Assembly: GCF_037042905.1 (NCBI RefSeq)
Contig: NC_087245.1
Coordinates: 12,588,001-12,652,000, forward strand
Source: Lytechinus pictus
Taxonomy: Eukaryota
DNA: 64,000 nucleotides
Direction of reading: 5' to 3'
Each line of letters begins with the position of its first letter. The first letter of the stretch is position 1. The position numbers were made by a program, and so were the translations under genes. Below are positions 22,395 to 61,851 of the stretch, piece by piece. The notes beneath the pieces were generated by a model. The model was given only the letters and a program-made list of their open reading frames with translations. It was not told where the DNA came from and ran no database searches.

Positions 22395-25300
22395 TGTTAC
22401 ACCCACAAATGTAATAATCGCCCACAAATGTAATAACGCCCACAAATGTAATAACACTTTACCCACAAATGTAATAACGCCCACAAATGTAATAACACTT
22501 TACCCACAAATGTAATAATTTCACCCACAAATGTAATAATGCACTTTACCCACAAATGTAATAATTTTTGATCGCCCACAAATGTAATAATGACTTTACC
22601 CACAAATGTAATAAATTTGAAGGGATTTTTGGCGAATCTGTTCTAAACTAAAATCCTATAGTAATGCGTTCATATAGCACAAAAGTGCAAAGTCTTTTTT
22701 CCAGACCCGGTTAATAAAACATTATAGTACAATTCCAAAGTCTTTTTCCAGACCCGGTTGTTTCAAAATTATAATATACGTCCAAAGTCTTTTTTCCAGA
22801 CCAGGTTAATTCAAAAATTATAATATACACCCGGTTGTTTCAAAAATTATAATGCAGGTCCAAGGTATTTTTTCAGACCCGGTCGTTTCAAACATTAGAA
22901 TATAAAAAAGTCCAAAGTCTTTTTTCCAGAACCGGTTGTTTCAAAAATTATAATATACGTCCAAAGTCTTTTTTCCAGACCCGGTTGTTTCAAAAATTAT
23001 AATGTAAACATTAGAATATAAAAAAGTCCAAAGTCTTTTTTCCAGAACCGGTTGTTTCAAAAATTATAATATACGTCCAAAGTCTTTTTTCCAGACCCGG
23101 TTGTTTCAAAAATTATAATGCAAGTCCAAAGTCTTTTTTTTCAGACCCGGTCGTTTCAAACATTAGAATATAAGTCCAAAGTCTTTTTTCCAGACCCGGT
23201 TGTTTCAAAATAATCATAAGTCCAAACTAAGATAATGATATTCTAGTGGAATAAAATGAGAATCGAGCTTAGTCTTTTCTCCAGACAAAGTCAATTAAAA
23301 CTTGTGGAAAAGTAACAAAGACCCCCACTCTCTTGTAAATATTATATAACATGGAAATATAGCGTAGTCTTTCATCCAGACCCAGATCTTTCAAATAACA
23401 AATGAATAATAATAATGATAATAAATTAGTAATAATAAAAAAGCAAACAAAGACCCACGATCATATTTATGCTGAATAACATTGAAATATAGCGTAGTCT
23501 TTCCTCCAGACCCAGATCTTTCAAATAAGAAATGATGAACAATAATAATAAATTAGTAATAATAATAAAGCAAACAAAGGCCCACGATCCTCTTTATGTT
23601 GAAAAATATGGAAATATAGCGTAGTCTTTCCCCCAGACCCAGTTATAAAAGTAATTAAAAACACAACAACAACAAAACAAAGACCCTGCAATCTTTTGAA
23701 CATTGAATAACATGGAAATATGCTGTAGTCTTTCTTATTATTATTTCAAAATAACCAAAATCATTAAAAAAGAATAACAGAATCTAAGGCCCAACTATCC
23801 TTCAAACTAAGAACCTTCAATAAATAAAAGTTTAGAGAGCTTTCTTTATTCCAGACCTTGTCATTTCAGAAATAAGATAAATGAAATCCTCATAACTAAG
23901 ACTCACTCATATTCTTGTGCCTGTACAACATGAATAAGATGATTGGGGGAGTATTTCATCAACATTTATGTCCGACAAGTTGTCAGATCTGACAACTGTT
24001 CTTGATGTTGATTGGCTGAGAAGCAGTGCTACCAGTGTCGGATAAAACGTCAAACAACTCCTTTCATGAAATGCTCCCCGGGCTCTAAGTTTTGATGTTG
24101 TTTTTTTATTATAGATTTCTTTGCCTGGAAGAAAAAATGAATGTTTAATTGCATCATTTACAGGATGTTAGGCTGGAAGAGGGTTGAATTTTTTTTTTTT
24201 CTGTTTTTTTTTAATAAACTGGTCTGGTCAAATTAAGTATGCGTTATCAAAAGGGTTTTATAGTTTGGAAGATGCTGGGGTCTAGGTTTTAAGATTAATG
24301 TTTCGCTTAATTTGTATTTTAAAGAGAACTGGGTGAGGGGTAAAGACAACACTCTAAGCCCAAGCATTTTAAGTGGGTTTAATTTTGAGGATTGGTCTTA
24401 GCTGTGATTATTTTTCAATATTTTTTTATCTTTTAAATAACCGGGTCTAGACGAAAGACTAAGCATAATACTCGTGTTATTCCACAAGAATAAGAATATG
24501 ACAAAGTCTTTTGTTTTTAAGACTGTTTAAATCATTTTTAAATTACTGGGTCTGGAATAAAGACAACGCTCTAAACATGTGCTTTTCTACATGCATGGTC
24601 TTAATTTGGAGGATTGTTGGTCCTAAAACTCGTTTTGGGGGGTTGGGTTTTATTGATTTTTTATTCTTCAAATAATTGTGTCTGGAGGAAAGTCGATCTT
24701 CGACAATCGGTCTTCATGTTATTCCACAGAAATTAGATTATTGGGTATTCGTTTTAGAATATTTGTAAAAACTATTTTATTTTTTTCAAATAATAACCAA
24801 GTCTGGAGAAAGGATGTTTGCTTTACCCATGCATTATTACAATGTTTTGTAGGGGTCGTAGTATTATTTAAAAAACTGCGTATGGGGTAAAGACATATTT
24901 TTTTTACTGGGTGAAACTTTGGAAAATTGGTCTTAGATTTGAAGTTTTTTAATTCATTTTATAATAGCCGGGTCTGGAGGACAGACTTTGGACTTATATT
25001 GTAATTGTTTAATTATCCGGGTCTGGAAAAAAACACTTTGCACTTTTGTGCTATATGAACGCATTGCTATAGGGTTTAGTTTTTAGTTTTAAGTAACCGG
25101 GTCTGGAGAAAAGACTACGCTTGATTCTCAATTTACTCTTAGCGCATATATTCACAATATACGCCGTATAAGTTAAAACAACAACAAAGACATTTATTCC
25201 ATCTAGTTTAAATTAACTGGGTCTGGAGAAAAGACTAAGCTCGATTCTCGTTTTTTTTCTGGAATACCATTAACGTAACTTAGTTTGTACTTATATTATA

Positions 25301-26853
25301 ATTTTTTTAATAACCGGGTCTGGAAAAAAGACTTTGGACTTATATTGTAATTGTTTAATTATCCAGGTCTGGAAAAAAGACTTTGCACTTTTGTGCTATA
25401 TGAACGCATTGCTTTAGGGTTTAGTTTTTAGTTTTAAGTAACCAGGTTTGGAGAAAAGACTATGCTTGATTCTCAATTTACTCTAGCACATATATTCACA
25501 ATATACGCCGTATAAGTTGAAACAACAACAAAGACATTAATTCCATCTAGTTTAAATTAACTGGGTCTGGAGAAAAGACTAAGCTCGATTCTCATTTTTA
25601 TTCCACTGGAATATCATAATCGTATCTTAGTATGGACTTAAACTATAATTTTTGAAATAAACGGGTCTGGAAAAAGACTTTGGACTTATATTAAAATTTT
25701 TGAAACAACCGGGTGTGGAAAAAAGACTTTGGATTTGCATTATAATTTTTTAATTAACCGGGTCTGAAAAAAAGACTTTGGACTTATATTAAACTTTTTG
25801 AAACAACTGGGTCTGGAAAAAAGACTTTGGACTTATATTATAATTTTTTAAACAACCGGGTCTGAAAAAAAGACTTTGGACGTATATTATAATTTTTGAA
25901 ACAACCGGGTCTGGAAAAAAGACTTTGGATTTATATTATAATTTTTGAAACAACCGGGTCTGAAAAAAAGACTTTGGATTTATATTACAATTTTTTAAAC
26001 AACCGGGTCTTGAAAAAAGACTTTGGACGTATATTATAATTTTTGAAACAACCGGATCTGGAAAAAAGACTTTGGACGTATATTATAGTTTTTTAATTAA
26101 CCGGGTCTGAAAAAAAGACTTTGGACTTATATTAAACTTTTTGAAACAACCGGGTCTGGAAAAAAGACTTTGGACTTATATTATAATTTTTTAAACAACC
26201 GGGTCTGAAAAAAAGACTTTGGACGTATATTATAATTTTTGAAACAACCGGGTCTGGAAAAAAGACTTTGGATTTATATTATAATTTTTGAAACAACCGG
26301 GTCTGAAAAAAAGACTTTGGATTTATATTACAATTTTTGAAACAACCGGGTCTTGAAAAAAGACTTTGGACGTATATTATAATTTTTTAAACAACCGGAT
26401 CTGGAAAAAAGACTTTGGACGTATATTATAGTTTTTTAATCAACTGGGTCTGGAAAAAAGACTTTGGACGTATATTATAATTTTGAAACAACCGGGTCTG
26501 GAAAAAGACTTTGGACTTGTACTATAATGTTTAATTAACTGGGTCTGGAAAAAAGACTTTGCACTTTTGTGCTATATAAACGCATTACTATAGGATTTTA
26601 GTTTAGAACGAATTCGCCAAAAATCCCTTCAAATTTATTACATTTGTGGGTAAAGTCATTATTACATTTGTGGGCGATCAAAAATTATTACATTTGTGGG
26701 TAAAGTGCATTATTACATTTGTGGGTGAAATTATTACATTTGTGGGTAAAGTGTTATTACATTTGTGGGTGTTATTACATTTGTGGGTAAAGTGTTATTA
26801 CATTTGTGGGCGTTATTACATTTGTGGGCGTTATTACATTTGTGGGTGCAACA
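22395..26853. mobile_element. Foldback-type non-autonomous DNA transposon (4.46 kb) with modular inverted arms
   Basis: Termini TGTTACACCCACAAATG / CATTTGTGGGTGCAACA; outer arrays of CCCACAAATGTAATAA; inner arrays of a ~58-bp unit (AAAGACTTTGGAC..AACCGGGTCTGG) in opposite orientation in the two arms; inserted in a C-run. Confidence 0.88.
23946..24079. mobile_element. Small MITE nested in the foldback element
   Basis: GGGGAGTATTTCAT...ATGAAATGCTCCCC; internal palindrome AGTTGTCAGATCTGACAACT. Confidence 0.6.
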
Positions 26854-31000: not shown

Positions 31001-32324
31001 CAGGGGCGGATCCAGCTTTCGCCAATAGGGGGGGGGGGGGAGGGGCGCCCGGAAATTTTTTTCACCCAAATTTTCCCCGGCGACCGCTCAAAGTTGATTT
31101 TTTTTTTCTTTGAAGGGGTATAGTCCTAACAGTCACTTCTTAGCTGTATTCCTCTCTAAGAACATACAGTAAATATATATATAATAATCTCATAAGCCTT
31201 ATTTAACTAATGCGAGCTAAAATTCTCGTAAATTTCATTTATTTTGTCCTGAAAATTGAACATTCTGAGTAACGTTTGTGATCCTAAACAAGATGCGTAT
31301 ATAACTAAATAAATATTGCGAGCGCGAAGCGCGAGCAGAAAGTTTTGATATACGTTTTTGCCTGATCGAAAGGGACCTGTTATGACTGTTTGCAGATAGC
31401 CATGAAGACGATACATATTTGAATCATAATGCGAACGCGAAGCGCGAGCTGAAAATTTTTGACATTCCGACCTAAAAAATGGACATTCTAAGCACTTTTT
31501 GTAATCATGAACAAGGTAGGTATATAACTAAACAATGCGAGCGTGAAGTGCGAGCGGAAAAAAATTGAGATTTAGACCTAAAAACGGGACACTCTATTCT
31601 TGTTTTGTAAACCATGAAGATGGGTAATTGAGTATCTTCCTACATTAATAACAGGGGCCGCGGAACCGGGGGGGGGGGGGGCTGGGGGGGCTTCAGCCCC
31701 CACTTTTTTCCAAAACCGTAAAAATGACCATATGATTGTGATTTTTAGCATGGTCAGCCCCCCACTTTTGGCTCAGCCCCCCCCCCCACTTTGAAAACTG
31801 TTCCGCGGCCCCTGAATAATGCGAGCGCGAATCGCGAGCAGAAACTTTTTAATATTTTGATCTGAAAAAAAACGGTCAATTCAAGCACTACTTCAAGCAC
31901 TGAAAAAGAAAATTGTAAAGTGGATATGAATCGCACTTAATAAATGATGCGAGCGCAAAGCGCGAGCTGATATTTTTAAAAATTATTTAACCTAGGACCG
32001 GGACATTCTAAGGACATTTTGTCATCATATGAAAATGATCATCATCTTCCTATTCCTCTTCCTAAGCACGAGATAAAACTTGTCGATATTCCTTTCTGAA
32101 AAAGGGACAATTTAATTGTTAGGAATTCATGAAAATTTCATTATCTTATTTATTAGTCTAATAAGCCCAATGAGAGCGAGAAATTTCTTGATATCAAAGC
32201 CTGAACTTGAAAATAGGATATTTTTTATCACTTTTGTAACTACGAATAGGATGCATTTGATAGTATATTTTTAACAATTAATGCCAGGGGCGGGCCCCTC
32301 GGCCTCCCCCTGGATCCGCCTATA
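31001..32324 (+). mobile_element. hAT-like non-autonomous element with GCGAGCGCGAAGCGCGAGC subrepeats
   Basis: CAGGGGCGGATCCAG...CTGGATCCGCCTATA, with AATATG directly repeated on both flanks. Confidence 0.75.
31652..31814. mobile_element. Nested MITE with perfect 15-bp TIR and 5-bp TSD
   Basis: CAGGGGCCGCGGAAC...GTTCCGCGGCCCCTG flanked by AATAA on both sides; absent from the homologous position of the 15-kb copy. Confidence 0.85.
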
Positions 32325-36200: not shown

Positions 36201-39200
36201 CTCTCATTTTATGCCATTCACTGTATATTATTATTACATTGGTGTTCTCTTTAACTGACCAAATTGACCAAGGGCCTTCTCCTCTTTCACAGGTCATACT
36301 TTATGTACTGAAGATTCATTGGATGTTCATGATAACTTATACCCATTAACAGTTTCTTGAAGTCCTTTCCTTTAAGCTTCATGGTTGTTTAAAGTGATCT
36401 ACATGTATAGTTAACAGTTAACTCACATACTCATGCTGTATTGTTTATATTTCTTGCAGCTCAAGTGTTCTTTTGATTTGGAAGATGTCTTTGCAACCTA
36501 CATTGATGATGAGGAAGATGAGGTACTTTGTAAAGATGACATTATTTTCTTGACAGTGGTTGTAGTTTGTTTCTAACTTTGGTGGCCATATTCTTTCTTC
36601 AAAGTTGTAAAAGTGGATGAATTAAAATAAATGATACAGTGGAATGATCTTCAATTAGAAATGCCATCTACAGAGTAAATCCATGGTTGCTTTCACTACT
36701 TTTCAGTATTATTCACTTTGAGTGAACAATCAGTAAAAGATGACCAAATTCACCATTGTTCATCTGCTTTAGTAGCATACAATTTCTACCGGTAAATAGA
36801 GAGAACATGCTCAATGAACAGAACTGACTAATAAAACTATAGTAACCCCTTTTTTATTCCTACATGTACATACACTGTACATTTGTGACTGGATCTTTCC
36901 ATTTGAATTTTTCATTCAGCTTGGGATAGAATGTATTACATCAATGACTGAATTGAATTACATTAATATATTCTAACATAATTTGTCAAGTGGGATTTGT
37001 TATAGTTGAGGTAAATGTATTATGTGTAGTGTACAAGTGTAGAAGAAATTGAAGAATGTTGAGTCATGCCCTCATTTGCACATGACTAATATATTCAATA
37101 TTTTCATTTTTTGTTCATCACCAACTTGTATTTTAACCTTCATTTTTGTCTCACCTGCATAGCAGAGTGAGACTATAGGCGCCGCTTTTCCGACGGCGAC
37201 GGCGACGGCGGCGGCGGCGGTGGCGGCGACGGCGGCGGCGGCGGCGACGGCGACGGCGACGGCGGCGTCAACACCAAATCTTAACCTGAGGTTAAGTTTT
37301 TGAAATGACAGCATAACTTAGAAAGTACATGGACCTAGTTCATGAAACTTGGCCATAAGGTTAATCAAGTATTACTGAACATCCTGCCTGAGTTTCATGT
37401 CACATGACTAAGGTCAAAGGTCATTTAGGGTCAATGAACTTAGACCATGTTGGGGGAATCAACATCAAAATCTTAACCTAAGGTTAAGTTTTTGAAATGT
37501 CATCATAACTTAGAAAATATATGGACCTAGTTCATGAAACTTATACATAAGGTTAATCAAGTATCACTGAACATCCTGCATGAGTTTCACGTCACATGAC
37601 CAAGGTCAAAGGTCATTTAGGGTCAATGAACTTTGGCCGAATTGGGGGTATCTGTTGAATTACCATCATAACTTTGAAAGTTTATGGATCTGATTCATGA
37701 AACTTGGACATAATAGTAATCAAGTATTACTGAACATCCTGTGCAAGTTTCAGGTCACATGATCAAGGTCAAAGGTCATTTAGGGTCAATGAACTTTGGC
37801 CAAATTGGGGTATTTGTTGAATTACAGCCATAAATTTGAAAGTGTGTTGGTCTAGTTCATAAAACTTGGACATAATAGTAATCAAGTATCACTGAACATC
37901 CTGTGCGAGTTTCAGGTCACATGATCAAGGTCAAAGGTCATGTAAGGTCAAAGAACTTTGGCCACGTTGGGGGTATTTTTTGAATTGCCATCATATCTCT
38001 ATAAGTGTATTGGTCTAGTTCATAAAACGTGGAAATAAGAGTAACCAAGTATCACTGAACATCTTGTGCGAGTTATAGTAGTTTTCAAAATCAGCACTGC
38101 TGCTATATTGAATCGCGTGATGCAGGTGAGACGGCCAGAGGCATTCCACTTGTTTGTCTATGGCATTAATTTCTAACCTTTGATCTTGTTATCTTTTTTT
38201 TTTTTATTATGTACAGATTGCCGTAGACACTGAAGGTAAGTGAATTATCAGTTGATGATATGATGAATTGCTTCTTCTGAATAAAAAACATATTTTGTTT
38301 TGTTTTGATATCCATTGTGATTATTTTATTTTAGTACTTTGTAAATTTTTAAGAAAAAAATATTTAAGTTATATGCTTTGCTTTAGAAAAAAATTGCTTT
38401 GGCATGTTGTCATCTGAACCTTAATTAATGTATGTTTGTGTATAAAAAAAAGTTTTAACTCAGTTTGCTTCCTGTACTATGGGAATCATGTTAAGGTGAC
38501 ACTTTCTGTTTCTAATAGTACCTGATTTGATATAAGACTGTATTAGGACTGAGTCATGTTGATAATCTCCCTGTCCAGATTCTTATACTATTCAGTAACT
38601 AATATTCTGATGTACATGTATGGATGTGGGGAACTTTCCCATAAGATTGGCAATATGATTGATGGAAGTGGAATCTCCTTGATTGTAAAGGAATTACAAT
38701 GAAGTAAGTAGTCCTGATCAAATAAGTGCAAAAAAAAAGTTTCTGAGTAAGGTTTATTAGTATCAAAGATAGTATATTTCGACAGGGCTGCACATAATGT
38801 AATGTAAGTACATGTACATCCTTGATAATATAACCATCCTACTTCCTTTATCCCAACAGAAGAATATGACCAGGCCAAAGCATTGGCTTCCAAGTGTCAG
38901 AACGTGCTTCGTCTTAGAGTCTACCCCAAAGACAAGAGACCCAGCTTGGACTCCGTTCCAAAGAAAAACACAAGTCCTCCTGAGGTAAGGTTTAGGTGTA
39001 CATACATAAATATTGTGATATGACAGAGTTCTCAATGTAAATTAGAATTTTCCACTTGCATTGGACTGATAAACATGTGTGGAACTACATACTGGTACCA
39101 ATTAACCATGATTGTACTGTCCAAACTTAACCAATTGTAACGGTACTGGGAAGTGTTTATAAAGCTATATTTGTAAGTAACACATGCCTGGTGGTCCTTT

Positions 39201-42200: not shown

Positions 42201-45200
42201 TTGTGGATTTTATATCCTTCCATTTCAGCCATTGCCTGAACTTTGACCTATGTGAAGAGTGTGAAGCTCTACCTGGTGCGCATGATGTTAACCATGTGTT
42301 CCTGAAGCTCAAACGACCAGCATACCGTATTGGAATGAAGTCTGATGGAAGGACTGCTCCTATCTTCAAACATCCTATCTATGCTGATGATGACACACCT
42401 GTCTGGGAATACAAGTCAGTTGGATTCCAGTGCTTACAATTAATACTGAAACATTTTAGTTAAATGCAACAGACCCCCCCCCCCCCCAAAAAAAAAAAAA
42501 AAAAAAAAAAAAAGAATAACCCCCAAAAGAATGCCCTCCAAACTATGATTATTTAAATTCTGAATTCAGTCAATTTTCTTTCAATCTGTTTTAGATTGTG
42601 GGACATATTTTTCATCCAATATACCGGTAATTGTATTCAATGACCATGAATTAAAAATCAAACTTTCATAGTCATACATGAGTTGTGTTGTACTACTTAG
42701 CATGATTTGTGTTACTTGTCTTCAGGAATGTTATTGAATGATAGTGACGTTCACCATATGAAGTCAAATACGCGCATGTTCAAATTCTTAAACAAAATTT
42801 CTACTTCATTTTAAGCTAAAACTGGCTTTAAAATTTAAAATATGACTGATTTTCCTCTTGATTTTTTTTTTCTTCATAGGATCAAGAAACTTGAAGAGAA
42901 GATGGCCAGGAAAGCTGCTCGGGCAGAGCTCAAGCGAAAGTACCGAGAGGAGAAGCGCCGTGTCAGGGTCGAGTGTCACAGCCAGGTATCACCAACTAAG
43001 AGAGAGAGGATAGAGAAGATGGCTGAGAAGCAGGCCGAACAGATTGTGGTTGCTGCAAGTGTGGCTGCTTTCCCTACAACCTCTACCACTTCAGCAGCAG
43101 ATTCCACCTCTGAAACAACTCCTCTGCTTGCACTGTAAGTTATTCTTAAAACTCCTTGTGTTGTCATCCTATAATTATAATTCTATAGAGATTTATTGAT
43201 CACTAGTAATCAAATACCTTGTAGGAGGGAGTTTCAGTATCAAGAGGTTGAGTGATACAAGTCTTGATGGGTAGTTACTCTCAAGAAAACCATTATATTT
43301 GACCTATACACACAATGTAAAAGAAGTATGTCTTTTCAAATAGATCAATGATATTAAGATTATGTCAGGAACATTTGTTTTGTTAAGATTAACAATTATT
43401 AGTTCTACTTCTTTATGATTTACACAGAACGAAGTTTGATGCTGCCTTTGTTAGTGATGGTAACTTGCCAGATGAGACCCATCTTCAACCCATGACTAAG
43501 TTTGTCAAGAGCTGGATCATGATCAACAATGGTAGTGTGCAGTGGAACTCAGATACCAAGGTAAGAAATAATATACAACAGACCACAGGCTCTTTCACAC
43601 AAAACACTGTCCAGGCCTTACGGCAGGTTAAAAAAAAATCTGATTGAAATGAATGAGTCATGTTCTATTTGGTGAAGTAGTTCTTGTCAAACATGTAGTC
43701 ACCAGAAGAGTAACTTGAACAGTTTTTAAGCAATCACTCTGGGAGTGATTTGATAAATATGGAATCCAATTACTAAGGCCAGTACCACAAAGCTTTACTA
43801 TTGATCACAGGACCGATTTAACTCTGGATTGCATTGATGATTATGTGCAATCATTTGTAAAATGCCAGTTGTAGAATAAATTGGTATGGAGTGATTGGAG
43901 ACAACGGAGACATACATTAGTATGCTAAAAGAAAGAAGAGTTTATTGCTTGTCAGTAATCTATTAATTGAAATGAAATGTCAATTGCACTAACACAATGA
44001 ACATCTCACTCCTATTTGCTCCAGGAGAGGAAGGACTAATCTACATGGAATTTTTGGTAAAAATTTGTTTTATATGTAATCAACCATTTTGAATCAAATG
44101 TTTAATTTCAGTTGAGGTACCTGTGGGGTAACATCAAAGTCCTTTCCCCTGACCCAATGATTATCCCACTCCTGTTACCGGGAGAGGAAGGACCCATCTG
44201 TGTGGACTTTGAAGCACCTGCCAAACCAGGCCACTATCAGAGTCACTGGAGACTTACACAGAAGGGAGAACAGTTTGGCCATCGTGTCTGGTGCAATATT
44301 ATTGTGGATGAGGCTGAAATCTTGGAGCCGAAGTGTGAGAGCAAGAAAACTGTGCAGGAGGAGCTGATTATACCAAAAGTTAAGGTTAGTCATGTCAGTG
44401 GTTATAATCATGTGGTTCCATTCAAGATTCTCAAACACAACTATAGCTAAATCCATTTGGCCAACTAGCAGTTAAGTCTAATTTTTGTTTTTGTCCAATT
44501 ATCACTTGTTTGTATACTTGCATGTGCTTGGTATCATTTTGTCCAATTGACGTTTCTCATGACAAATGGTGTGATTGCCATTTTGTCAAATATGATCAAC
44601 TTTGTGGTCTGGGACAAAGTTGTTGACATTCCATGTTATCTTCTAATGCTTTCCCTTAGGAGAATGATGGAGTCCAGACTGAGACCAGTGAGAATACAGC
44701 ATCAAGTGCCGTGGCCCACCTCCAGAGTGACCAATCAGATAACGGCTCTCCGACCAGGATGGTCTCATCCTCTGATGTTCTCACTGCCCATGATGTCCTC
44801 TCATTTGAACTGCTCAGTATCCATGATGACCAGGATGCAGACAAGGAAGTTGCTGGCCTGAACAGTCCTGCTGCCACTACTACACCTAACAATACTCCAA
44901 TAGGTAAGGAGAGAATCATTTTGGATCATCTGTTGTAAATGTGATTAATGGTCATACGAGAAGCAGGAACTAGGAAACATGAATTGTGCCTCACTTGTGT
45001 ATTAGAATTATTTTTAAATTACCTACCCTTCTTTTAGAGTGAGCTTTCCCCCATTGTTTTGCAGAAAATTGAAAGAAAAAAGCCCCTTTTCTTTGCACCC
45101 CTCAAAATATGATACCTTGGATCCACCCCGGGAGTTACAGGACCCTGTAAATCGACATTCCATTGACAAATCATGGGGAAATCAAGGCTAATCTCAGAAC

Positions 45201-48200
45201 AGCAAAGGGATTCAAGTCTTTCACTCGGCTGCATGCCTGGGGGTGTTATGTAATAGACGCCGGCATGTCTGGGAGGTCTAATATAGGAGAGCAATAGTTA
45301 GTAGACTAACCAACTAGGAATAAACTGCTTGTTTTCACTTTGAAACATGTAACTTCACAGAGGTTATTTATTTTGGTTTAGCAATCAAGAGACCTGCTAA
45401 GAGTTTAGGAATTGGGATTGTTGGAAACTAGAACTGCGACGACCTGAAGTAAATAACCATCACGAGTTCGGTCAAATTCATGCTGTCCGAACTTTTATTG
45501 CATTAGTCGTACCAGAAAAAAAATTGACAAGCAAAAAAAAAAAAAAAAGGTCTTCAACCACAAATAAAGGATTTCGTCCCAGAAAAAAATTTGACAAGCA
45601 AAAAAAAAAAAAGGTCTTCAAGACTCGTCAGGGGGGGGGGGGGGGCGGGGCAGGGATATGTCCCTTGCATGGGTTGTGACTCGTCAGGGGGGGCAGTCTG
45701 CCCCCCCCCTTTCTCGTAGGTACGCTAGTGCCTGGAGTGATTCAAATGCAATTTTTGTCTCGCCCACCAGAGGTGAAGGCGAGACTTAGGGATCCAAATG
45801 TTGTCCGTCGTCCGTCCGTCACAAACCTTATGACACATAACTCCACAACCGTAAGTCGCTTTTCAACCAAACTTGGATGGTAGATGGACTAGGGGGACCT
45901 GCATGTTAGGCTGCAGTCAGAGGTCACATGGTAAGGTCAAAGGTCATTTTCAGGTCAACGTTAAAGTTTACATGCAAGACTCTTATGACACCTAACTCCG
46001 CAACCGTAATTCACTTTTCAACCAAACTTGGATGGTAGATGGATTGGGGGACTTGCGTGTTATGCTGCAGTCCGAGGTCACATGGTAAGGTCAAAGGTCA
46101 TTTTCAGGTCAACGTTAAAGTTTACATGCAAGACTCTGTTATGACACCTGACTCCGCAACCGTAAGTCACTATTTAACCAAACTTGGATGGTAGATGGAT
46201 TGGGGGACCTGCATGTTATGCTGCAGTGGGAGGTCACATGGTAAGGTCAAAGGTCATTTTCAGGTCCACATTAAAGTTTACGTGCAAGGTTCTTATGACA
46301 AGTGTTATTCCATCCCAGTCATTTCACAATGAAGTTTCGATACAGTTATGTTGCCTGCCCTCGCAAATCACGATATTTCTGGTTATTTTCATAAGTGGGC
46401 GAGACACAAAATCGCTTTTGCCTTGTTTTTAGAAGATTAATCTGTGAAAAAGTGTTTTCCTTTAGAGTCTTCAGGCATGTAACTTATCAAAAGCTTGCTT
46501 ATTGTGATTGCTTGAGGATTGAGATATGAAGAAACCATTTGTTTGTATGTAAGTAAACCTCAGGAGTGAGAGTACTTACATATCAATACCTTACCAAAGA
46601 CTGCCAGCTTAACCAACTGGTTTCCAACCAAACAGATTATTGATTACCAGACAAACGACCTACCAACCGAGCAATCCCACCTTCTGAAAGCTTTACCTTT
46701 GTATTTCTCTCTTTACAGTTGGACTGACCCCCTGTATCTCACCCATCCCTCAGCTGGATGAGAAGCTCCTATGCCGTAGGGTATCTGAACACAGTGATCT
46801 TGAGATTATCCATCGTGAAGACATCCCAGAGATCATTGAAACCCAGGATACAGTCAAAGATGGACCAGCCATGGAGATAGCTCAGGATGGTGTTCCAGTA
46901 GCATCCTCTTTCTCTGATAATGAAGGTATAAAACACATGTATCCAGTCAATAGTAACAATTATATCATGTATTAAGTGGATTCTTATCAAATAATATTAT
47001 GTATGAATTTACCAGCTTGTGTTTTTAATGATCTTTACCATGTATATTTCTGAGAATGTTTTACTTATCACTTTGATCGGAGCTTTACAAGTAATTTAAG
47101 TATCACAAATCATCTACAGTTGTGATTTCCATTGAAATTTTACAATCGTATTCATTTTGTGACACTTCAGTTACAATGACTTTGATACATCCCAATTTTT
47201 ATCTATGAAACAGTTGAAATAGGCATTTATTCTCCATGATTGTCTCTTTTCTTTGCCTTTATTGTATTATGTTTTATTGTTCTTGTTTATTTTCAGATGA
47301 GTTAGAGAGTATCTGTAGTTCATCTGATAGTGACATGCTTGATGACTACTGCGTGGTACCTCTACCAGATTGCTTTGATCCATCTAAACCTTTGGATAAA
47401 TCCATGATCCTCTCTAGGACGTCCATGTCTTCATCATTGGTAGGTAACTCTACAAAAGAATGCTAGTCAGCTTGGTCGATTGCTGATTGGTTTACACCCG
47501 CTTTCCATTTGGTCTCATCACACATGGTTCATCCTAGTTTGTCTGCAACCAGTTCTTATACGAACCATTAGGTCATATTGCCATTTAGCCCATTTGTCAT
47601 TTGGTCTAATTTTTGGGCTTTACCTATTTTTTGTCCAATATCCACTTGTCTACACCTCTTAAGGGTATATGGTTAGATGAACTGTATATGAAAGAAATTT
47701 CATTTGACAAAGGAAAGATGATAAGCAAATGAAGAGGAAATTAGACCATCTGGGCATCTAAATGAGAATTAGACTAAGTGGATATTGGATCAAGTATAGT
47801 GTAGACAAATTGGTAGTAGATCAATTGGGTTTAGCCCTTGTGGTATTTGACTATCTAAAAGGTAGACCAAGTGAATATAAATCTTCACTGATGACATGAT
47901 ACTTGCTCCTCTTTTTATTTCTTGAAAGACATACAGTTGTGCTCCAAAGTTAGCGAACCCCACCACAAAGTGCACTCCTTCATGCTGAGTGTTGAATATA
48001 GACAACAAGACTACAATGTTCAGCAAGCCCAGAGAAACAAACTTTATTGAATGTAATAGTATATCACCTGACTTCACAATTAAATATAAAAAACATGGCA
48101 GAACTTGAACACTTTTCTTGTAGGGTTCACTAAATTTTGAGCACTGCTGTGGTTCATACGTGTAATGTGATAGGGTTTTTAGTACAGGATAATGTCAGAT

Positions 48201-51200
48201 TACATTTAGATTATGTTTTAGGTTAGGTTTTTTCAATCCATTTAATGTTCAGATTTTCCATTGGCGCAATTTTAGCGGAAGCAATTGTCATGGAATCATC
48301 AATGTTTTCCCCAAGCAACCTCTCCTCATATTTCTGTAAGGAATAGATAAGGGAGGACTACACTTTACCCCCTTATTGATAGAAAATAATAGGTGAAGAA
48401 GATTTGAATAATCAAAACTTCGTAGAATATCATTCACTTGTTTCAACAACGTTAAGTAATGAATATGAAATGTTGGTTATGTTTGCATGTTTACATTTGT
48501 TGAAGTCTTCAACTTACATTGGAGGTTGCAATCATTGTTTACGTTTTTGGTACAGTTTAATAATGGACGTTCTTGATAATTGAAGTGGAATGTGTTGCAT
48601 TCATTGCATTGGGTATGCAAAATCAGCATTTAGTTTAGGTTATATTAGGTTATTGTGATAATATTTGGAATCCTTAAATGTCTTATCGATTAATTTGATC
48701 CCAGACCTCTAGCATTCTAGCACCAAGTGCTGAGAGCGCACCCCTGGTCAGGTTACCTAGTTATGAAGAGAGCCAGGCAGAGATCGAAAGCACCTCCACT
48801 TCTGAAGGTCCCTCCATGTCGGAAAGTTCATCCATGTCTCCAAAAGCATCCACTCCCATCATCATAGAGGAAGAAGTTCCTCAGTTTTCCGCAGCTGCTG
48901 CCCCTGAAGACAATGCAACTCCATCTGCTGAACAAGACCATGGAAAGGCAGAAGAGATCATCCAGATGGAAAAGGTCCAAGCAGAAGACTCTATCAATGC
49001 TGAACCATCCGTAGATGCCATCCTAAGCACTTCAAACCCTGCTCTGGAAATCACCCCTCTCATCCCATTAGTGGCTGCTACCCCTGTTCAGAAGCAGCAG
49101 GTCAGTGATGCTACCATCCCGTCCCCCAAGCCAACCACACCCAGCCAGGAGACAGTCACAGTTGCACCCATGCCAGAGATCACTCTCCTGGCTAGTCCAG
49201 TACCAACCCAGTCTGAGGAGGCTGTGCTGATTAACCCAGAAGGGAGTGTCCTGTACGCCACAAGACAGCGTGAGGTAAGAATGAATATTTTACATGTACA
49301 TAAACCACATTAATTGGAACTTGGCTTGTTGGTGAAATCAACCATCCAATTGGTTCATTGACAGTGCACCCTGTTGCGTCGTGCACTCATTGTAAATCTT
49401 AAACACTCCAAGCTTTGGGCTTGAAGCTCTCTGAATGTAGTATTTTATTTATCAAGAAATGTCAGAATCTTTAACTTTAGTAGGAGAAAGACGTTAGTAG
49501 TGGTACATGTGTATACAAATCCCAGCAGTGATGAATTATCACATATCTTTTTTTCACTTATCAGGTTGTGAGAGAGTCTCGTACAACCCCTGCTGTTGGT
49601 GGTGCTGAAGGGACCAACCTTGACTTGATTGAAACAACTGTCCAACCTCAAGAGACAAAGGTCAGTATAGAAACACAGCGACCTGGTGAGAATTTCTTGA
49701 AAAGCTCTGTTAGTGACATTCACTGATTAATTTTGCCTTAGCCAATGAGATTCAATGACTTGCAGTGAGCTTATATTATCTGTTGGTGAATATCACTGAT
49801 GAAACTTTTCATGAAATGCCCCACTAAAATTCACAAAGGTTTTAAAGTTTAATCAGTTTAAGGGCCCTGTCATGTCGTTCTGTTCAAGCCTTGTGTTTGA
49901 CTTGCGGATTACTATTGTTTGCTACACGCTGGTCACCCATATTGACAGTATCTCGCATGTATCTCACACGCAGTTGCCTGCTGAAGCGCACGTACCGTAA
50001 GTCTAATTTGCACGCAGAAAAGTTTTGAACACGCTTAAAACTTTGTTGCGTTTGTTGCAGAGTTTTGAGTGATTGCCTGCATCTTGCCCTCAAGGCTTGC
50101 ATGGAACGATGTGACAGGGCCTTAAATTAGGTATCTTTACCTTAACCAGCTTTGTCACATTGGGATTTCACAGTGGCTTTTCTGATCCCTCATGTTTTAG
50201 AAAATGGAGGGTTAAAGGCAAGAAAAATATTGAGTGGGATTCCCACTAAAAGTGCTGAAATTTTATTCAGAATTTTGTCAATTACCTCAAGAGATTGACT
50301 TTGAAGCTAGCAAAGAAATCCAATGCCATTGGCCACTGTAAGAAAGGAATAAGAAATGTAAGTGATAAGGTGTTTAAATCTATCCTAGAATCATATACTG
50401 AGGACAACTCTATATCTTTTACATATTAATAGGCCCTGTTATATGAGATAATGGTCAATGTCATGAAGCCCACAGTGTAGGAAAGTGGACTGTAAATTAC
50501 TCATAGCATTAATATCAAGGTAGAGTCTTTGAAATAAAGTTCAATGGTTATCCTATCATAGTAAGGTGTTACATGGCTAAAGCGAGTCAGGTTTGTAAAA
50601 TAATGAATACTTCCTGGAAACTGGGTAATGCTAAATTGTGGAAAATCGGCAATGTGAATAAGCACATGTGGGTATGTGTAATATTATATATTGGGGAAAA
50701 AGATCCATTAATTACTCATTTTCTATCAAAATAATTGGGCATGTATTATTTGTTCATATTTCCAATCACTCCATATTACTTTTGTTGGATTATTTTCTGA
50801 GTTTATTTTGTAGTCATTACTTGAATGCATGTTCAATGTTCATAGGTCCAAGAACCTGAGAGGCATGAGGATCATGATGATGAGTTCCATGATGCTCAAG
50901 ATGTACCAACCCAGCAGATGAATACCCAATATAACAACACCTACAGTGATGTCCAACTTGAAACTGACCCAGTTGATCTCCTAGGGTAAGTCTTCTCCAT
51001 GGCTTCATCACTCAAATAAAAGGGCTCCCAGACATATGAAGACGTGGCATGGGGGTTCTAAATCACCACCCCACCCACAATAACATTTCTTTCTCACATA
51101 TTCCCATATACACTGATTTTTTTTTCAATCTGTCCACAACCCAGGGAGCGATATTTTAAAAGAAAATTTAAAATGTTTTTAAACACAATTTAAGATGTCT

Positions 51201-53633
51201 TTCAAATGGTTGTTTTCCGTTTCCTGGACAAATCATGGGTTAGATTATGTGTATCATGATATACATGTATGTGCTGTTTTTACATTTTGTTTATGTATTT
51301 TTAGTTAAGTAAGACACTCATGACACTATTCTGATTATCTTGTCATTGGCAGGTACACTGCTGCACGAGCAGTAGAAGTAGCAGGTAGTGTTGTTAGACA
51401 AGCCTTTGATACAGCTGCTAGCTCTGTGAATGCCCTTCTAAGACCACAGGTAAGAGTCTTTTCATAGTAAAAGAAAGACAAATCATCCCTTTTCCATATT
51501 TTGGCCTCATATTTGAAAGCAATTGTTCAATTTTTATTCTTTTTTTAATATTAAAACATAACTTTTTACGTCATAATGTAATAAGATCAATTCAAACACT
51601 GCTTTTTAGCAAACATTTGAAAATTAATTGTATTAGGTAATGTTAGGAGAAAGTTGTGAACTATCAAAGGACTCAAACTGATTCTTCTCAATTCTCAGAG
51701 ATGAAATGAAGAGGGACTGGAAAAAAAATCAAGAATGAAAGAGGGGAATAGTGATAAAAAGGAGATAAGTAAGAGGGTTAGACTGTTTGGGGAAGGATTC
51801 CATACATAAATTAATAAGTTTTTTGTAGGTGGGTTTTTGAAGGCCAAGACTCATCAATTTTAATGGGGAACGTAGTCATTGGTTGTTTACTTGGTTACAG
51901 CTGTTGTTCAACCCATAGAATGGAGTCTGCTTTTGTGACCTACATGTACAGGGCAGGGCACGACAAACCCGCTTGCCCGGGGCAAGTGAAAATGATGTGC
52001 GGGCAAGCATTTCTCAAAGTCAATTGCCCGATCGAGCAAGTGGTTGTTTTGGAAATAAAATATCAGTTGACCCTCTAAATTTCAATATCTTTTGGATAAT
52101 CACAACTATCTCTCAGATTATGTCAAACCAGTAAAAAAAAACAGTGGAAACTGATGTAAAATCAGCGCCAATTACCTCGTTCGAAAAACCGTGCCATTGC
52201 ATCTTACGTTCTATGTGTACAATGACTGCGCATGCGCTACTTGAGCAATTTGCCAATATGCACACCCCAAAAAAAAAAAACCAAAAGGGGCTTAAATTTC
52301 ACATTTTGCAAAAATCCATGAAATGGCCATCTATTTTCCATATTACCTTGAACTTGTTTTGATTTAGTTGGAAACTACTGAAAAAATGAAGAATATTCAG
52401 CTCTTTCTTGACTCTCTTTCTTTACTCTGATTTATGATGGTGTTACACTCGGTAAATGTTTTTTATTATTGTGGACCCACATGTAGACTTTCATGTTGAC
52501 CAAGTGTAAAACGATCAAACGATACGATCAATGATCAATGCTGCAACACCATGAAAAAAAAAAAAACATGAAAGTCTACATGCGGGACTACAATAACAAA
52601 AATATTGACCGAGTGTAACATCATAAAATGATGAAGAAAAGACAAGAAAGAGGTGAAAATTTAAGGAAATATGGAAAATAAATGACCATTTCAAGGATTT
52701 AAAGATGCAAAATGTGAAATTTTAGCCACTCCACTTTTGATTTTTTTTTTTTTTTTTTAACATCATAAAACGATCTTTTTCAGGGTCAATAAAGAGCTGA
52801 ATATTTTTCACTGGCTTTCTTTATAGTTTCCAACTAAATCAAAACAATTCTAAGGAAAAAAATGGCAAACAGATAACCATTTCGTGGATTTAAAGATGCA
52901 AAATATGAAATTTTAGCAACTTTTGGTGAAGGTTTTTTTAAACCTTAAATTAAACCCCATTTATAAATAGTGAAAAAAAATCAAAATAAACGCAATGACT
53001 CAGGCCTACGTTGCTGAACATAAACTTTTAAATGTGTGTTCTTTTATACTGCACATGATTCTCAATTGTTGTTATTTTGTATGACCTTTAAAAATAAGAG
53101 TAGTGCCGTCATAATAAAAAAAAATTATAAAACAAATAGGGCAAGCAGTTTTTTCTATCGGGCAAGTAAATTTGTAGAGGCCTGGGTCTGTTGATGCTCT
53201 GTTAATTCCACTTATGATATCATATGGTATTGTCATTATCTCATTTATTCTAGTTAATGATGCCTGAAGTAATTTGAAGATTCTCTATGCTGGGGCAACT
53301 GATTTAGCTGCCCCTACCCCTCCCAGAACCTCTATTACAGGTAGTTCAATGCTATTCACAAAATGCTGAGTCATCAAAGTATAATTGTTTCAATGAAAAC
53401 TGCAAAATATCTCAACTTATAGCATCATTTTGCCTTTCATTTGACAGCCCATCCCCATGCCTGCCCCATACGAACCACCAAGCCTCTCACCTATGGACCA
53501 GCTGATTGAGATGGGCTTCGGGAACAGGACTAAGAACCAAGAACTACTAGAGAAGCATAATGATGATGTGTCAAGGTGTGTCCAGGATCTCCTTCAAGCA
53601 GAGGAAAATAATTGGTCCGATACCAGACACTAG
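33242..53633 (+). CDS. NBR1: NBR1 (next to BRCA1 gene 1) selective autophagy receptor, ~1118 aa, 19 coding exons
   Basis: Exons (GT-AG, phases consistent, 3357 nt total): 33242-33337, 36460-36522, 38217-38235, 38860-38984 (PB1, OPCA motif YIDDEEDE), 39422-39700, 40516-40687, 41492-41564, 42229-42414 (ZZ: CDKC..RYKCGHCLNFDLCEEC..H..H), 42880-43134 (coiled coil), 43428-43560, 44112-44384 (FW domain: FVKSW..NNG..W, YQSHWRL..QFGHRVWC), 44660-44903 (DVLSFELL), 46719-46925, 47297-47439 (LIR DDYCVVPLPDCFD), 48705-49274, 49565-49660, 50846-50985, 51353-51449 (amphipathic helix), 53448-53633 (UBA: LIEMGFGNR..W..RH*). Confidence 0.95.
34887..36030. repeat. Complex of direct and inverted repeats in NBR1 intron 1 (decayed DNA element)
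   Basis: GCCAGGAGGCTCCTAGA..TCATTCACT..GTGTGCTTACTC at ~35353, inverted copy at ~35715-35778 and diverged direct copy at ~34887; the block GCCATCTTGT..CTTTGTTA..AGGCGGCA is repeated at ~35644 and ~35958. Confidence 0.6.
36036..36185. mobile_element. 150-bp palindromic element
   Basis: Arms ATAAAAAATGTG..CATTGGCC.ATAAATATCA..TGAATCTCACCTCGATG / CATCGAGGTGAGATTCA.TGATATTTATTGGCCAATG..CACATTTTTTAT. Confidence 0.7.
37143..38154 (+). mobile_element. HINE/pearl/Tsp-type element, family 2
   Basis: Subterminal IR GTCTCACCTGCA (37148) / TGCAGGTGAGAC (38121), partial inner IR GTGAGAC, (GGC/GAC)n microsatellite, ~4.5 internal repeats of 162-192 bp, T-run flanks. Confidence 0.8.
40971..41186 (-). mobile_element. 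tRNA-derived SINE (family B), full copy
   Basis: Minus-strand box A TAGCTCAGTCGG and box B GGTTCGATTCC; body CTTCGGAGGGGACCTTAAGCCGTCGGTCC; paralogous to 27681-27872. Confidence 0.85.
45752..46427 (+). mobile_element. HINE/pearl/Tsp-type element, family 1
   Basis: Reverse complement of 14452-15122; GTCTCGCCCAC / GTGGGCGAGAC IR, (GTCC)n, three ~155-bp repeats. Confidence 0.8.
49862..50122. mobile_element. PIF/Harbinger (Tourist-like) MITE
   Basis: TAA|GGGCCCTGTCATGTCGTTC...GAACGATGTGACAGGGCCT|TAA; 3-bp TAA TSD. Confidence 0.8.
51954..53184. mobile_element. hAT-like non-autonomous element with internal long palindrome
   Basis: Imperfect TIR CAGGGCACGACAAA / TTTGTAGAGGCCTG; subterminal GGGCAAG repeats at both ends; inverted arms ~52290-52730. 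No TSD found. Confidence 0.6.
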
Positions 53634-57152: not shown

Positions 57153-57665
57153 GTAAGTTAATTTGAATGACAAACAATGAGTGCATAAGTTATAAATATT
57201 AGACATGATTGATACTACTACTAGTAGCCGCATGATTGATAGTGAGCCGAATGCTGTTCTCTCTCTATCGGAGAAGTCCTGGCAACGTGGCTAATCAATT
57301 TCCGTTCCGGTCGGTGGGCTTCTGGATGTCTGAGCTGTGCTTTGCCTGTGACACGTATGGTTGGAACTACCCCTTATCGACCACCTAATCTTCTCAGCAT
57401 CGTATCTGCGAAAATATTCATCAATTTTACCCAGTTTTAGTCTCATTTGTGCAGAAAATTGAGCAGATCAGATTCCCATGTTTCGCTCGGCGACTCCGAT
57501 TCAATCCGCGTATATATCGACGAACAACGAATACGACGATTTTACATTTGCTCATTTGCACCCGTCTTTTGAAACCGACCACCCGCGATACACTAAGTTT
57601 ACGGCCGATTCTTGTCGCGGTGGCGAAATATTTTTACTCTTCCAAATCAGTTCTATGATGTCAAC

Positions 57666-58370
57666 CACTCATGGTATCAATGCATCTCGCGTGCGAAGGA
57701 TTCATATGCACATGGTGCACTCGAATTTTTCACACCCTTTTTACTAAAATAACTAAGCCATTCCTTTTAAAATAATGTTTCTAATTGTGCTATGACACTT
57801 ACCGAACCATATGGATCGTTTCTTGTCTTCTCTTTGGTGTGTTTTTAAGAAAAAAAATGCATTTTCTCGTGATCTTCACGTAGATACCGCAGGGTAATTG
57901 TGGTTGTAAACTTTTGCTTAAAGAGGGCGCGCAATATTATTCACAAGATGTTTGTTTACGAATCGACGGTTCTGCAGCTTGTACTGCTAGCTGCATTTTA
58001 GACGCTCAGCATTATTTTCCTCTTTCTGTTTTTTTTTTTTGCTGTCAAGCGGTATTTTCTATTGTAGCGCCATCAGCGATGATGAAATGTAAAGAGTCGC
58101 CTTGAAATGAAGAAAAATTATGTCACATTAATTCGTTAGTTTGTTTCCTATTTTTTTCCACTTTTTTCTTCTTCCTCATCTATGATCAAAGGTGAATACC
58201 TTTTTTTGATATCTGTTCTAAAAGCTGGACATTTTAAATATTTTGTTCAAGTAAATAAATCAACAGGATAGTAATCAAAATGCGATAGAGCTGCCCGAGC
58301 TGAAAATTCTGATACAAGGACTTGAAAATAAAACATTCTGAGCACTTTTTATAACCATGATGAGGAGACC

Positions 58371-58406
<36 letters not shown>

Positions 58407-58491
58407 AAGTTATACATGTACTACAGCTTTGGCAACTCTTTTATTTAAATATTGTGTGAAAGATATATATAAAATGCTTGATTTATTTGCG

Positions 58492-58534
<43 letters not shown>

Positions 58535-60466
58535 TGTATATGAAATAAGCTAACACGAAAAAAATACGTTTTGGGGACTGTTAAATAAGAATTCATGAGT
58601 GGGATAAGTAACTATCTATTCTATTCTTGTTCGTTTTCTATTATTATTTGTGTGTTGTGTTTATTTTTCTTGAAGCACCAAAAGGTGGACATGTCCGCTA
58701 AGATATATTAACGAAGTCACCATTATTATCACAAGCTAACGGATCAATTAAAATGCGAGCGTGAAACGTGAGCTTCTTTTTTTCTTAATTCAGTCTTAAC
58801 GATACTTTTTCATCATATTTTAAAGGTGAATCTCATGATTCAAAATGATAAATGCTTGTCGCACGGGCAGAAATAGCGGGACCAATAGTTATTTTCAATA
58901 TTCCGAACTGCATTCTGGACGTTAAGCGAATTTGTATAACAATTAAAAGGGTAGGTCTATTTACCTTACAAATTATGCGAGCGCTGAACTTTTGGACATT
59001 TAAACCTCAACAAATGGACATTTTTAAAATATGAACAACATCATAAATGTCACTTACAAAAATGATGCCAGCGCGAAGCTCGCGCTTAGAGTTTTTGATA
59101 TTGATGACAGGACTGTATCTAAATGAAAAATAATGCGAGGGCATTTGCGCTTAAGATTTAAATTTGGGATTTGAAAAGTCCGACAGATTACCTATACTTT
59201 TAAAAGAGGAATGACCTCCAGAATTCAAGCGCGAAGCGCCAGTAGATTTACGTTGAAGTTTAGACCTAGAACAGGGACGTTGAACCTTTATAATCATGAA
59301 AAAGATGGTATTTTTATAAATAAAACATGGGAGTCTAATTTTGTTTTAGTGTTAATATTCAGATCTTCAAACTTGACATTTTCCTATCCCCTTCATTATC
59401 CCCTCTCCTTCTCCCTTTCCCCATTTTCGTTCTCCCTTCTTTTCTTCTCTCCCTTTCCCTTCCCTTTTTCGCTTTTCCTTTCTCCCTCCCCTACTCTTTT
59501 CTCGCTCTTTCCATTTTTCTTTCCCTCTCCCTTCCCCTCTTCCTTTCCTTTGTTTTCTTTCTATTTTATGGTCTCCTTTTCCCTCTCTCTCCTCTATCTT
59601 TCCCCCTCCCTTTCCTTTCCCTTTCCCTCTCCTTTTTTGTGCAAACATTAACACGAACATCTTGCTTCCTACACACACACACAAACGCCCGCAATCTAAC
59701 ACACGTAATGCGAAACAATCGGGACATTATCATTTTGTTCATACATATATATGTATATTTTCTCAATGAACATTTTCATCTATTTAAAGCTTTGAAAATT
59801 ATCAAACAATGATTCCACAGGCGAAATCTCAATGATCATTAGAAAGGTACTTTACCCATTTTCATTTTATGTCATTGTGATTATTCCATACTAAGGCAAC
59901 ATATTTTGGATATAAAAATACGTGAAGGATATGTTCCTCTTCTGTTTTATACTTTAACAGAAAACATTTTGTTCAACCAAATTATGATTTGTATTTCCAA
60001 GTTCCATGTAATATTTTCATTGGAAAATCTCTTAAAGGTCAAGCTAGTGCACCCCAGAAAAAATTGTTTGAATAAATAGAGAACTATGTTGATTTTTGGT
60101 ACAATTTCCTATTATGCGCCGACGACTTGAATCGAGAATGTTCGATAGGAAAATTTCGCATTTCGATTGTTGTTTGCGTAATTTCCACCGCAGTACGAAG
60201 GATGACTAAGGACGGACCGAGCGAAGCATCCTGATTGAGATTTGGAGGTAAGCGATAAAAACACTTTAATAAATAATTTATAATTGCTTTTTCATAAAAA
60301 CTTGATCATACGATCAATATTAACATAGCGGACAAATATTGAAAGGTTTGGCGTAGTTTAGTCCCTCACATTCGTGTGATGAATGAAAACGTCAAAATGC
60401 ACTATGAAATCACATGTGTTGTGCGAGGTTAGTAATAGTATACTAACCTCGCATGTTGTGTGAGTG
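57666..60466. mobile_element. 2.8-kb insertion with CACTCA...TGAGTG ends and GATGTCAAC target duplication
   Basis: GATGTCAAC occurs at 57657-57665 and 60467-60475 but only once in the uninterrupted copy of element X. Confidence 0.85.
59385..59640. repeat. Polypyrimidine (C/T) low-complexity tract
   Basis: Almost exclusively C/T on the + strand. Confidence 0.85.
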
Positions 60467-61202
60467 GATGTCAACATGCTAAATGATCGTCTCACTACTT
60501 CCACTGCGAGCTCCGGCACATGATTCGACGATTGACGACGGATATTTGTTCTAAAGCCGTTTCCTATCGGATTTCTTGGTTTTTCAGCGGGAATTGGGTC
60601 TGGTCAATACAATTTTGATTAATTCTACTAAATTTTTACTTTTTGTTGCTTCTTTTTTTCTCGTAAAATCGATTCTTACCGTTCCTATGGACACTGCGCC
60701 TACTCTCCCGCGCGTATCGTTTGTAATACGCAATAATTTTAACGCGCGCAAGGTGGTCGGTTTCAAAAGAGGTGGTCGATATGTGGTAGTCTCACCATAC
60801 GGTATGGAAGGATAAAAACCGCGAGTCGAGACCTGCTCAGTTTTATGATTGATTTGACAAAATATGGATATCAAATAGCACAGTTTCGTTTTATGGAAAT
60901 CTGGGCCTTATCATGAAATTAGTCACTAGATTTAGTACCGGTAGGATGGGGGGAGGGGGGGGGGGGTCGGGTGTCCGGACACTTTATAATATTTTTGAAG
61001 CCTTCTTTTTTGTCTTTGGATTACACTAAAAATGTGAATTCAATAGTTGTAATCATTTATTATTTTGTTCTCTATAATATTTCCCAACATTTTGTACTAA
61101 AAATTGATGAAACTTCGCTTGTAATTTTTTCCGAATGACTTCATTTCTAAAATTGATCGTCCGGACACACAACCTGTCCGGACACACAACATTAACAACT
61201 GG

Positions 61203-61851
61203 GTATGGTGAGACTACCACATATCGACCACCTCTTTTGAAACCGACCACCTTGCGCGCGTTAAAATTATTGCGTATTACAAACGATACGCGCGAGAGAG
61301 TAGGCGCAGTGTCCATAGGAACGGTAAGAATCGATTTTTCGAGAAAAAAAGAAGCAACAAAAAGTAAAAATTTAGTAGAATGCCTAATCAAAATTGTATT
61401 GACCAGACCCAATTCCCGCTGAAAAACCAAGAAATCCGATAGGAAACGGCTTTAGAACAAATATCCGTCGTCAATCGTCGAATCGTGTGCCGGAGCTCGC
61501 AGTGGAAGTATATAGTGAGACGATCATTTTGATTTAGCATGTTGACATCATAGAACTGATTTGGAAGAGTAAAAATATTTCGCCACCGCGACAAGAATCG
61601 GCCGTAAACTTAGTGTATCGCGGGTGGTCGGTTTCAAAAGACGGGTGCAAATGAGCAAATGTAAAATCGTCGTATTCGTTGTTCGTCGATATATACGCGG
61701 ATTGAATCGGAGTCGCCGAGCGAAACATGGGAATCTGATCTGCTCAATTTTCTGCACAAATGAGACTAAAACTGGGTAAAATTGATGAATATTTTCGCAG
61801 ATACGATGCTGAGAAGATTAGGTGGTCGATAAGGGGTAGTTCCAACCATAT
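61203..61851 (-). mobile_element. ~650-bp TIR element X, intact copy
   Basis: Imperfect ~30-bp TIRs and subterminal ACCGACCACC motifs; near-identical to the split copy (the spurious ORFs at 57449/61757 translate identically). Confidence 0.88.

Follow-up and report, generated by a model that had tools for sequence, protein, structure and literature searches.

The window (the whole 64-kb stretch of DNA that was analysed) is AT-rich, repeat-dense animal DNA in which the exons of an NBR1-like gene run along the + strand from 44106 to 53560. The NBR1 Ig-like domain at 44106 scores above the Pfam cut-off, and a UBA-like exon near 53500 is recognised by motif only. About 4 kb beyond this UBA-like exon sits a 2801-bp segment that splits a ~640-bp host repeat (copy A), and the features of the locus are collected in Table 1. 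The preliminary description had presented the segment as a mobile element whose boundaries are well defined by an empty site within the window. Both a second, inverted copy of the host repeat (copy B), in which the 9-mer GATGTCAAC is present once, and public runs confirmed these boundaries. Among 20 public runs listed, 18 contained the stretch or part of it, and our evidence comes from four of them (X1, X2, X5 and X15; X2 and X5 are of organism B). The empty junction 57656>60467, at which nine letters fit either side, was found in 1, 2 and 3 contigs of runs X1, X2 and X5, respectively, and in no contig of run X15.

Table 1. Features of the element and of the host repeat it splits (positions in the window)
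Feature	Position	Strand	Evidence
Non-coding element, 2801 bp; very probably a non-autonomous DNA transposon copy	57666..60466		Filled versus empty site; 16 overlapping ORFs without a Pfam cut-off match; no Rfam match
Left target-site duplication GATGTCAAC, favoured 9-bp reading	57657..57665	+	Target symmetric about its centre in 5/6 pairs
Right target-site duplication GATGTCAAC	60467..60475	+	Joint 57656>60467, 9 letters fit either side
Left 6-bp terminal inverted repeat, CACTCA	57666..57671	+	End comparison
Right 6-bp terminal inverted repeat; element end reads TGAGTG	60461..60466	-	End comparison; X5 contig departs after 60466
Host repeat copy A, TATGG...CCATA ends, split by the insertion	57356..60799	+	Self-comparison of the window
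Host repeat copy B, inverted, empty site at 61541-61549	61204..61850	-	Self-comparison of the window
High-copy left end segment, inner edge approximate	57666..58165		X2 summed depth 56906, 13316, 1622 versus 1-600 in interior bins
High-copy right end segment, peak 60098-60466, inner edge approximate	59741..60466		Run depth
Low-copy interior: TA and CT-rich simple repeats and older interspersed-repeat remnants	58166..59740		Repeat scan, depth
Subterminal palindrome, 13-bp arms, 6-nt loop	60422..60453		Folding versus shuffles, Markov resamples, run depth
Inverted YGCGAR pair, positions 21 and 27 from the left end, candidate transposase sites	57686..57697		Motif scan

With the insert removed, copy A differs from copy B by 3 substitutions and 3 indels, all of them right of the insertion site, and copy B shows a 6-bp indel adjoining that site. 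Given that both copies share variants absent from most of the run depth (57395, 57439, 60592 and 60593), copy B is likely a local duplicate of copy A, and the insertion likely postdates this duplication. Of 25 ORFs scanned against Pfam, 16 overlap the element, one is a host-repeat ORF reaching its left tip and 8 lie elsewhere; no element ORF attained the cut-off, and no helicase or transposase remnant was found in the element. The sole match above the cut-off among the 25 ORFs was the NBR1 Ig-like domain, and a CxC7 match at 47790 (E 0.022) fell below the cut-off and outside the element. An Rfam search gave no match at E<=0.1. The element is a recent, gene-less insertion.

The terminal likeness was described previously as limited to CACTCA/TGAGTG, and the end comparison bears this out. 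The two ends are alike over 6 bp only; beyond these, shuffled sequences equalled the real ends in 394 of 500 trials over 40 nt, in 428 of 500 over 60 nt and in 336 of 500 over 100 nt, and no longer or offset terminal inverted repeat (TIR) was found between the two element ends. The empty site can be rebuilt from this one filled site with a target-site duplication (TSD) of 9 bp (CAC...GTG ends), of 8 bp (two asymmetric readings), of 7 bp (CC...GG ends or asymmetric) or of shorter length. The 7- and 8-bp readings require ends beginning CC or AC, and the 2-5-bp readings require ends other than CA...TG. Taken about the middle base of the 9-mer, 5 of 6 pairs in the target before insertion are symmetric; this base is the centre of the 9-bp and of the symmetric 7-bp reading, and the three other target centres give 0, 1 and 2 symmetric pairs of 6. 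Equal symmetry is found by background at 527 of 63986 window positions (0.8%) and at 4 of 633 positions of the host repeat.

Flanks of other copies bear on the same question. One X5 contig, under another organism label, departs from the window after 60466 with C rather than G, which counts against a terminal GG and thus against the CC...GG 7-bp reading. The match of an X1 left-end contig begins at 57664 and so extends two bases beyond the proposed left end; this start fits an 8- or 7-bp asymmetric reading better and would arise by chance in about 1 in 16 cases under 9 bp. We therefore favour a TSD of 9 bp, from the target symmetry and one foreign flank at one site, with 7 and 8 bp also permitted. 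The preliminary description had weighed just two readings, a 9-bp TSD and a 7-bp CC...GG alternative. Both are permitted and the first is favoured by symmetry, but the terminal GG of the second is opposed by the X5 contig, and asymmetric 8-bp and shorter readings are permitted as well. Palindromic targets are typical of staggered-cut DNA transposons, and a staggered cut made by a DDE transposase of two-fold symmetry is recognised by a perfect duplication at a symmetric target (PMC2577343).

The perfect 13-bp stem that had been reported 13 nt from the right end of the element is real and far beyond chance: none of 200 shuffles folded as well (z -4.9), none of 300 Markov resamples of the element held a stem of this kind, and the whole window contains one other. 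At the left end, no significant hairpin was found (z -0.37). Five of the six loop bases are missing in ~85% of the X2 and X5 depth, leaving a loop of ~1 nt, and run X15 mostly retains the 6-nt loop; the arms are thus perfect while the loop differs between organisms. With the loop reduced to ~1 nt in most of the X2 and X5 depth, two protein sites represent the simplest reading, and the palindrome is more likely a set of paired protein sites on double-stranded DNA than a Helitron terminator. Each of its arms has a YGCGAR hexamer as the outer 6 bp, at position 14 in one and 40 in the other when counted from the right end, and the hexamer is again found as an inverted pair near the left end (Table 1). 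Two or more YGCGAR occur in 528 of 63952 50-bp windows (0.8%), a background for a motif that was picked after viewing the right end, and the interior of the element contains further copies. The inward hexamer lies 7 and 20 bp from the TIR at the element's two ends, and an 11-mer overlapping the left arm of the palindrome recurs directly at 60454-60464.

Three further observations concern the right end and its palindrome. In one X1 contig the palindrome is followed by 13 different letters after 60453, which may represent a sister family or a cut contig. An X5 joint, 60466>60236 via 10 letters, may reflect a tandem unit of the right end; it lacks the form expected of a nested insertion flanked by a TSD. 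Near-identical palindrome arms also occur in a bacterial contig (L003:2013-2040), just upstream of a TetR-looking gene, where they are probably an operator and the likeness a matter of chance.

The earlier reading of the segment as a mobile element was upheld by the public runs, whose multi-copy ends speak against a single-copy repair insertion. In all four runs used, the ends are covered more deeply than the interior, as judged by summed contig depth (depth is not copy number). In X2 and X5 the summed depth reached ~13,000-109,000 over 57683-58004 and 60098-60419 versus 0-2,100 over 58166-59936. The same shape, weaker, was seen in X15 (95-660 at the ends versus 0-23 over 58166-59775). Foreign flanks agree with this, and the 9-mer GATGTCAAC lies outside the element in other copies among the run contigs; the loose ends and joints considered were, among those listed, 24 of 1356 and 15 of 109, respectively. 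In X1 and X15, contigs with few differences span most of the interior, no piece of the unique flank left of 57355 was found among those listed for these runs, and the X1 left-end contig continues into 28 other letters of foreign flank. These observations suggest that the 2.8-kb form is present at other loci too, and we infer that its ends are those of a larger family whose interiors differ. Part of the interior (58273-58360) is 74% like 31422-31510, and no second copy of the element was found in the 64-kb window. Matches to the end pattern in viral and metagenome contigs and GTDB genomes were confined to three loci (L001-L003) and were set aside, since nothing beyond the pattern is shared and the DNA looks microbial.

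The element is very probably a non-autonomous cut-and-paste DNA transposon. The preliminary description had concluded that CAC ends together with a 9-bp TSD fit no known group, a conclusion that does not stand: its comparison omitted BuT5, of the P superfamily, and AcademH. BuT5 is a non-coding P-superfamily element of the Drosophila repleta group (Rius et al. 2013, PMC3698922). In BuT5 and its P master the TIRs span 3 bp, the ends are unlike and the interiors unrelated; BuT5 is ~1 kb long, carries a sub-TIR pair of 16-17 bp together with THAP sites of the fly type, and has a TSD of 9 bp in 13 of 17 copies and of 8 bp in 4. A BuT5 end primer, BR, starts with CAC, and the same report added 55 bp for unsequenced ends. 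By arithmetic, these 55 bp correspond to BR at positions 1-20 plus BL at 17-35, and BR likely begins at the terminus, so that the BuT5 terminus would be CAC. The element found here is likewise non-coding, with CA...TG termini, a very short TIR starting with CAC (as that of BuT5 would), ends that are largely unlike and an unrelated interior, and the 9-bp TSD favoured at this one site is the most common length in BuT5. It differs from BuT5 in its length of 2.8 kb, its 6-bp TIR and the palindrome with 13-bp arms at one end.

At the level of letters the likeness is weak. The right end of the element agrees with BuT5 in register at 9 of 11 positions (13-23), an agreement reached by random window positions at a frequency of 0.0044 (0.009 for two ends), and the value depends on the run length chosen, with p 0.03 and 0.08 for other lengths and 10/27 (p 0.25) over positions 4-30. 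The left end gave no match to BuT5 (best 3/11), and no sub-TIR pair of the BuT5 type was found in the element. Fly THAP sites occur at chance level, with one 1-mismatch match in 600 bp and none by the strict degenerate pattern, where the fly consensus may not be that of the host. In the 9-bp register, the flanks of the target depart from ATR...WAT, the motif of fly P targets. In D. melanogaster, the P terminus has AGGT at positions 18-21, just inside the 17-nt cut. This cut is the staggered donor cut of P elements, most of which carry 27-32-bp TIRs and 7-8-bp TSDs. The unequal spacing of the hexamers here (7 and 20 bp) recalls the unequal spacing between TIR and binding site at fly P ends, 9 and 21 bp. 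The P-MITEs of Anopheles gambiae resemble the element in having shared ends in high copy number around unrelated central filler; they differ in their long TIRs (27-32 bp) and 8-bp TSDs, as compared with a 6-bp TIR here (PMC1562414).

The element behaves like BuT5 and is not filed as a P element, since it has neither a ~30-bp TIR nor a sub-TIR pair. That its transposase is one of the P superfamily, supplied from elsewhere in the genome, is our preferred reading, which we hold tentatively, at slightly less than an even chance. Under this reading, a transposase made elsewhere in the genome and acting in trans would bind short inverted motifs inside each end, namely YGCGAR at 21/27 on the left and the palindrome arms at 14/40 on the right. 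The two ends would then pair and be cleaved at CAC...GTG, and a two-fold symmetric complex would nick a symmetric target 9 bases apart, with fill-in yielding the TSD. In this scheme the palindrome would function in double-stranded form rather than as a rolling-circle terminator read in single strands. Unrelated filler could be brought in when gaps at donor sites are repaired, which would give shared ends with variable interiors, a gain of filler of the kind proposed for P-MITEs (PMC1562414). The element is probably a new family of a kind with published precedent, not a new class.

Among the alternatives, a non-autonomous member of AcademH, the helicase-encoding Academ lineage, moving by cut-and-paste with a 9-base stagger, is unlikely, though more probable than the others. 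In some AcademH families the TIRs are shorter than 10 bp and the termini read YR...YR. AcademH elements make TSDs of 9 or 10 bp (Kojima 2020; as cited in PMC10045372), and 9 bp is the length favoured here. Against membership, the element ORFs lack a helicase or transposase remnant, and Academ-1 termini start with TAG or TAC in 13 of the 13 listed (of 100), where the labels are Academ-1 and not Academ-H.

An undescribed DDE lineage with a 9-base stagger, whose palindrome might be read as an extruded cruciform, is improbable. It would account for the finding that no known group matches the element on termini, TSD, end symmetry and palindrome together, and for arms that stay perfect while the loop varies between organisms. 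However, every feature but the palindrome has a precedent in BuT5, and a loop of ~1 nt suits the double-stranded two-site reading equally well. A search on such ends that was confined to the literature, as distinct from Repbase and Dfam, led to BuT5 but to no description of this family and to no echinoderm family, which is weak evidence for novelty. In its full form, this alternative would mean a cut-and-paste lineage with a 9-base stagger, two unlike ends and a cruciform-extruding palindrome, and in a milder form the first BuT5-like P lineage with a 9-bp TSD outside flies; we consider such an outcome similarly improbable.

If the left end were shifted and the TSD were 7 or 8 bp, the element could be a non-autonomous KDZ member of the Kyakuja or Zisupton type, for which the X1 contig beginning at 57664 offers some support. 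Fungal Kyakuja have CA...TG termini without TIRs and start with CAC in 7 of the 14 listed, several with CATG soon after, like the left end here (PMC12730594). TSDs are 7 bp in Kyakuja and 8 bp in Zisupton/Dileera, and the 7- and 8-bp readings of our site either lose the CA or TG terminus or place the cut away from the centre of target symmetry (0-2 of 6 pairs). Moreover, CAC starts are found in 0 of the 11 Zisupton/Dileera 5' ends listed, and the listed Kyakuja are coding elements of 9-23 kb (PMC12730594), in contrast to the 2.8 kb of non-coding DNA found here. We regard this assignment as distinctly improbable.

A non-TIR or short-TIR derivative of a MULE has very little probability. MULE TSDs span 8-11 bp and some families lack TIRs (PMC6446971); non-autonomous members have mixed interiors, and Muta1 has a terminal palindrome (PMC5225508). 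However, bivalve MULE 5' ends start with G in all 14 of those listed (of 39), many with subterminal tandem repeats, and both features are absent from the element, whose CAC ends and 6-bp TIR also differ from the G-starting, usually long TIRs of this group. Other cut-and-paste groups were rejected on similar grounds. The CMCT groups (EnSpm, Chapaev and Transib) pair CA...TG ends with a TSD of 2-5 bp, a combination that no reading of this site provides; hATm termini read TAGGGTG with an 8-9-bp TSD, and differ from CAC; and Merlin departs from the element in a tested terminal or TSD feature.

That the segment is a rolling-circle element of the Helitron or Helentron (HINE) type, or that it was left by a single repair event beside a duplication arising by chance, has almost negligible probability. 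The preliminary description had pointed to a Helitron-like hairpin, and the palindrome near the end is indeed real, 13 nt from the terminus and within the 8-35-bp range of HINE 3' palindromes (PMC4067079). The non-coding sequence and the microsatellites inside are further points of likeness to HINE/DINE-1, the non-autonomous Helentrons. Yet the likeness is superficial: HINE/DINE-1 elements have 12-15-bp subTIRs, T-flanked junctions and no TSD or other target modification (PMC4067079), whereas the element has a perfect 9-bp duplication, no T-run at its junctions and no subTIR pair. A repair insertion is opposed by ends that occur in multiple copies and by other copies of the element to which the 9-mer does not belong.

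Whichever transposase moves it, the element adds one young, abundant repeat family to the genome's library and corrects a rule of classification, in that CAC...GTG ends combined with a 9-bp TSD fall within the range of known groups. Should its master prove P-type, as in our preferred reading, the 9-bp, nearly TIR-less variant known from a single lineage of Drosophila would be present in an animal distant from flies as well, and the family would offer a test of how two unlike ends are paired by P-like transposases. A master outside all known superfamilies would represent a new transposase lineage with a recently active substrate.

Several other repeats were observed in the window. The two copies of the host repeat, ~400 bp apart, each have their own imperfect TIRs, and their termini, TATGG...CCATA, fit the IS3EU signature TAYGG..CCRTA; no 6-bp TSD was found around them, and their flanks can be read as a duplicated TA within RTAY. 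Between copies A and B lies a separate, very high-copy short element (60936-61203) with the highest run depth. In other copies of this short element, a target containing TA adjoins the right end. The short element also contains repeated GTCCGGAC motifs, which form the core of the consensus target of fly P elements. Nested inverted repeats at 52269-52927 form a foldback-like element of ~650 bp with a partial extra arm, and a large inverted arrangement at 22395-26853, both arms of which (88% over 857 bp) contain arrays of 49-bp and of 18/23/41-bp units, resembles a foldback or MULE-type element with nested inserts. Finally, 14458-15122 and 45752-46412 form an inverted pair, 89% alike, of a repeat with ~156-160-bp tandem units, to which an array at 37268-38074 looks related.
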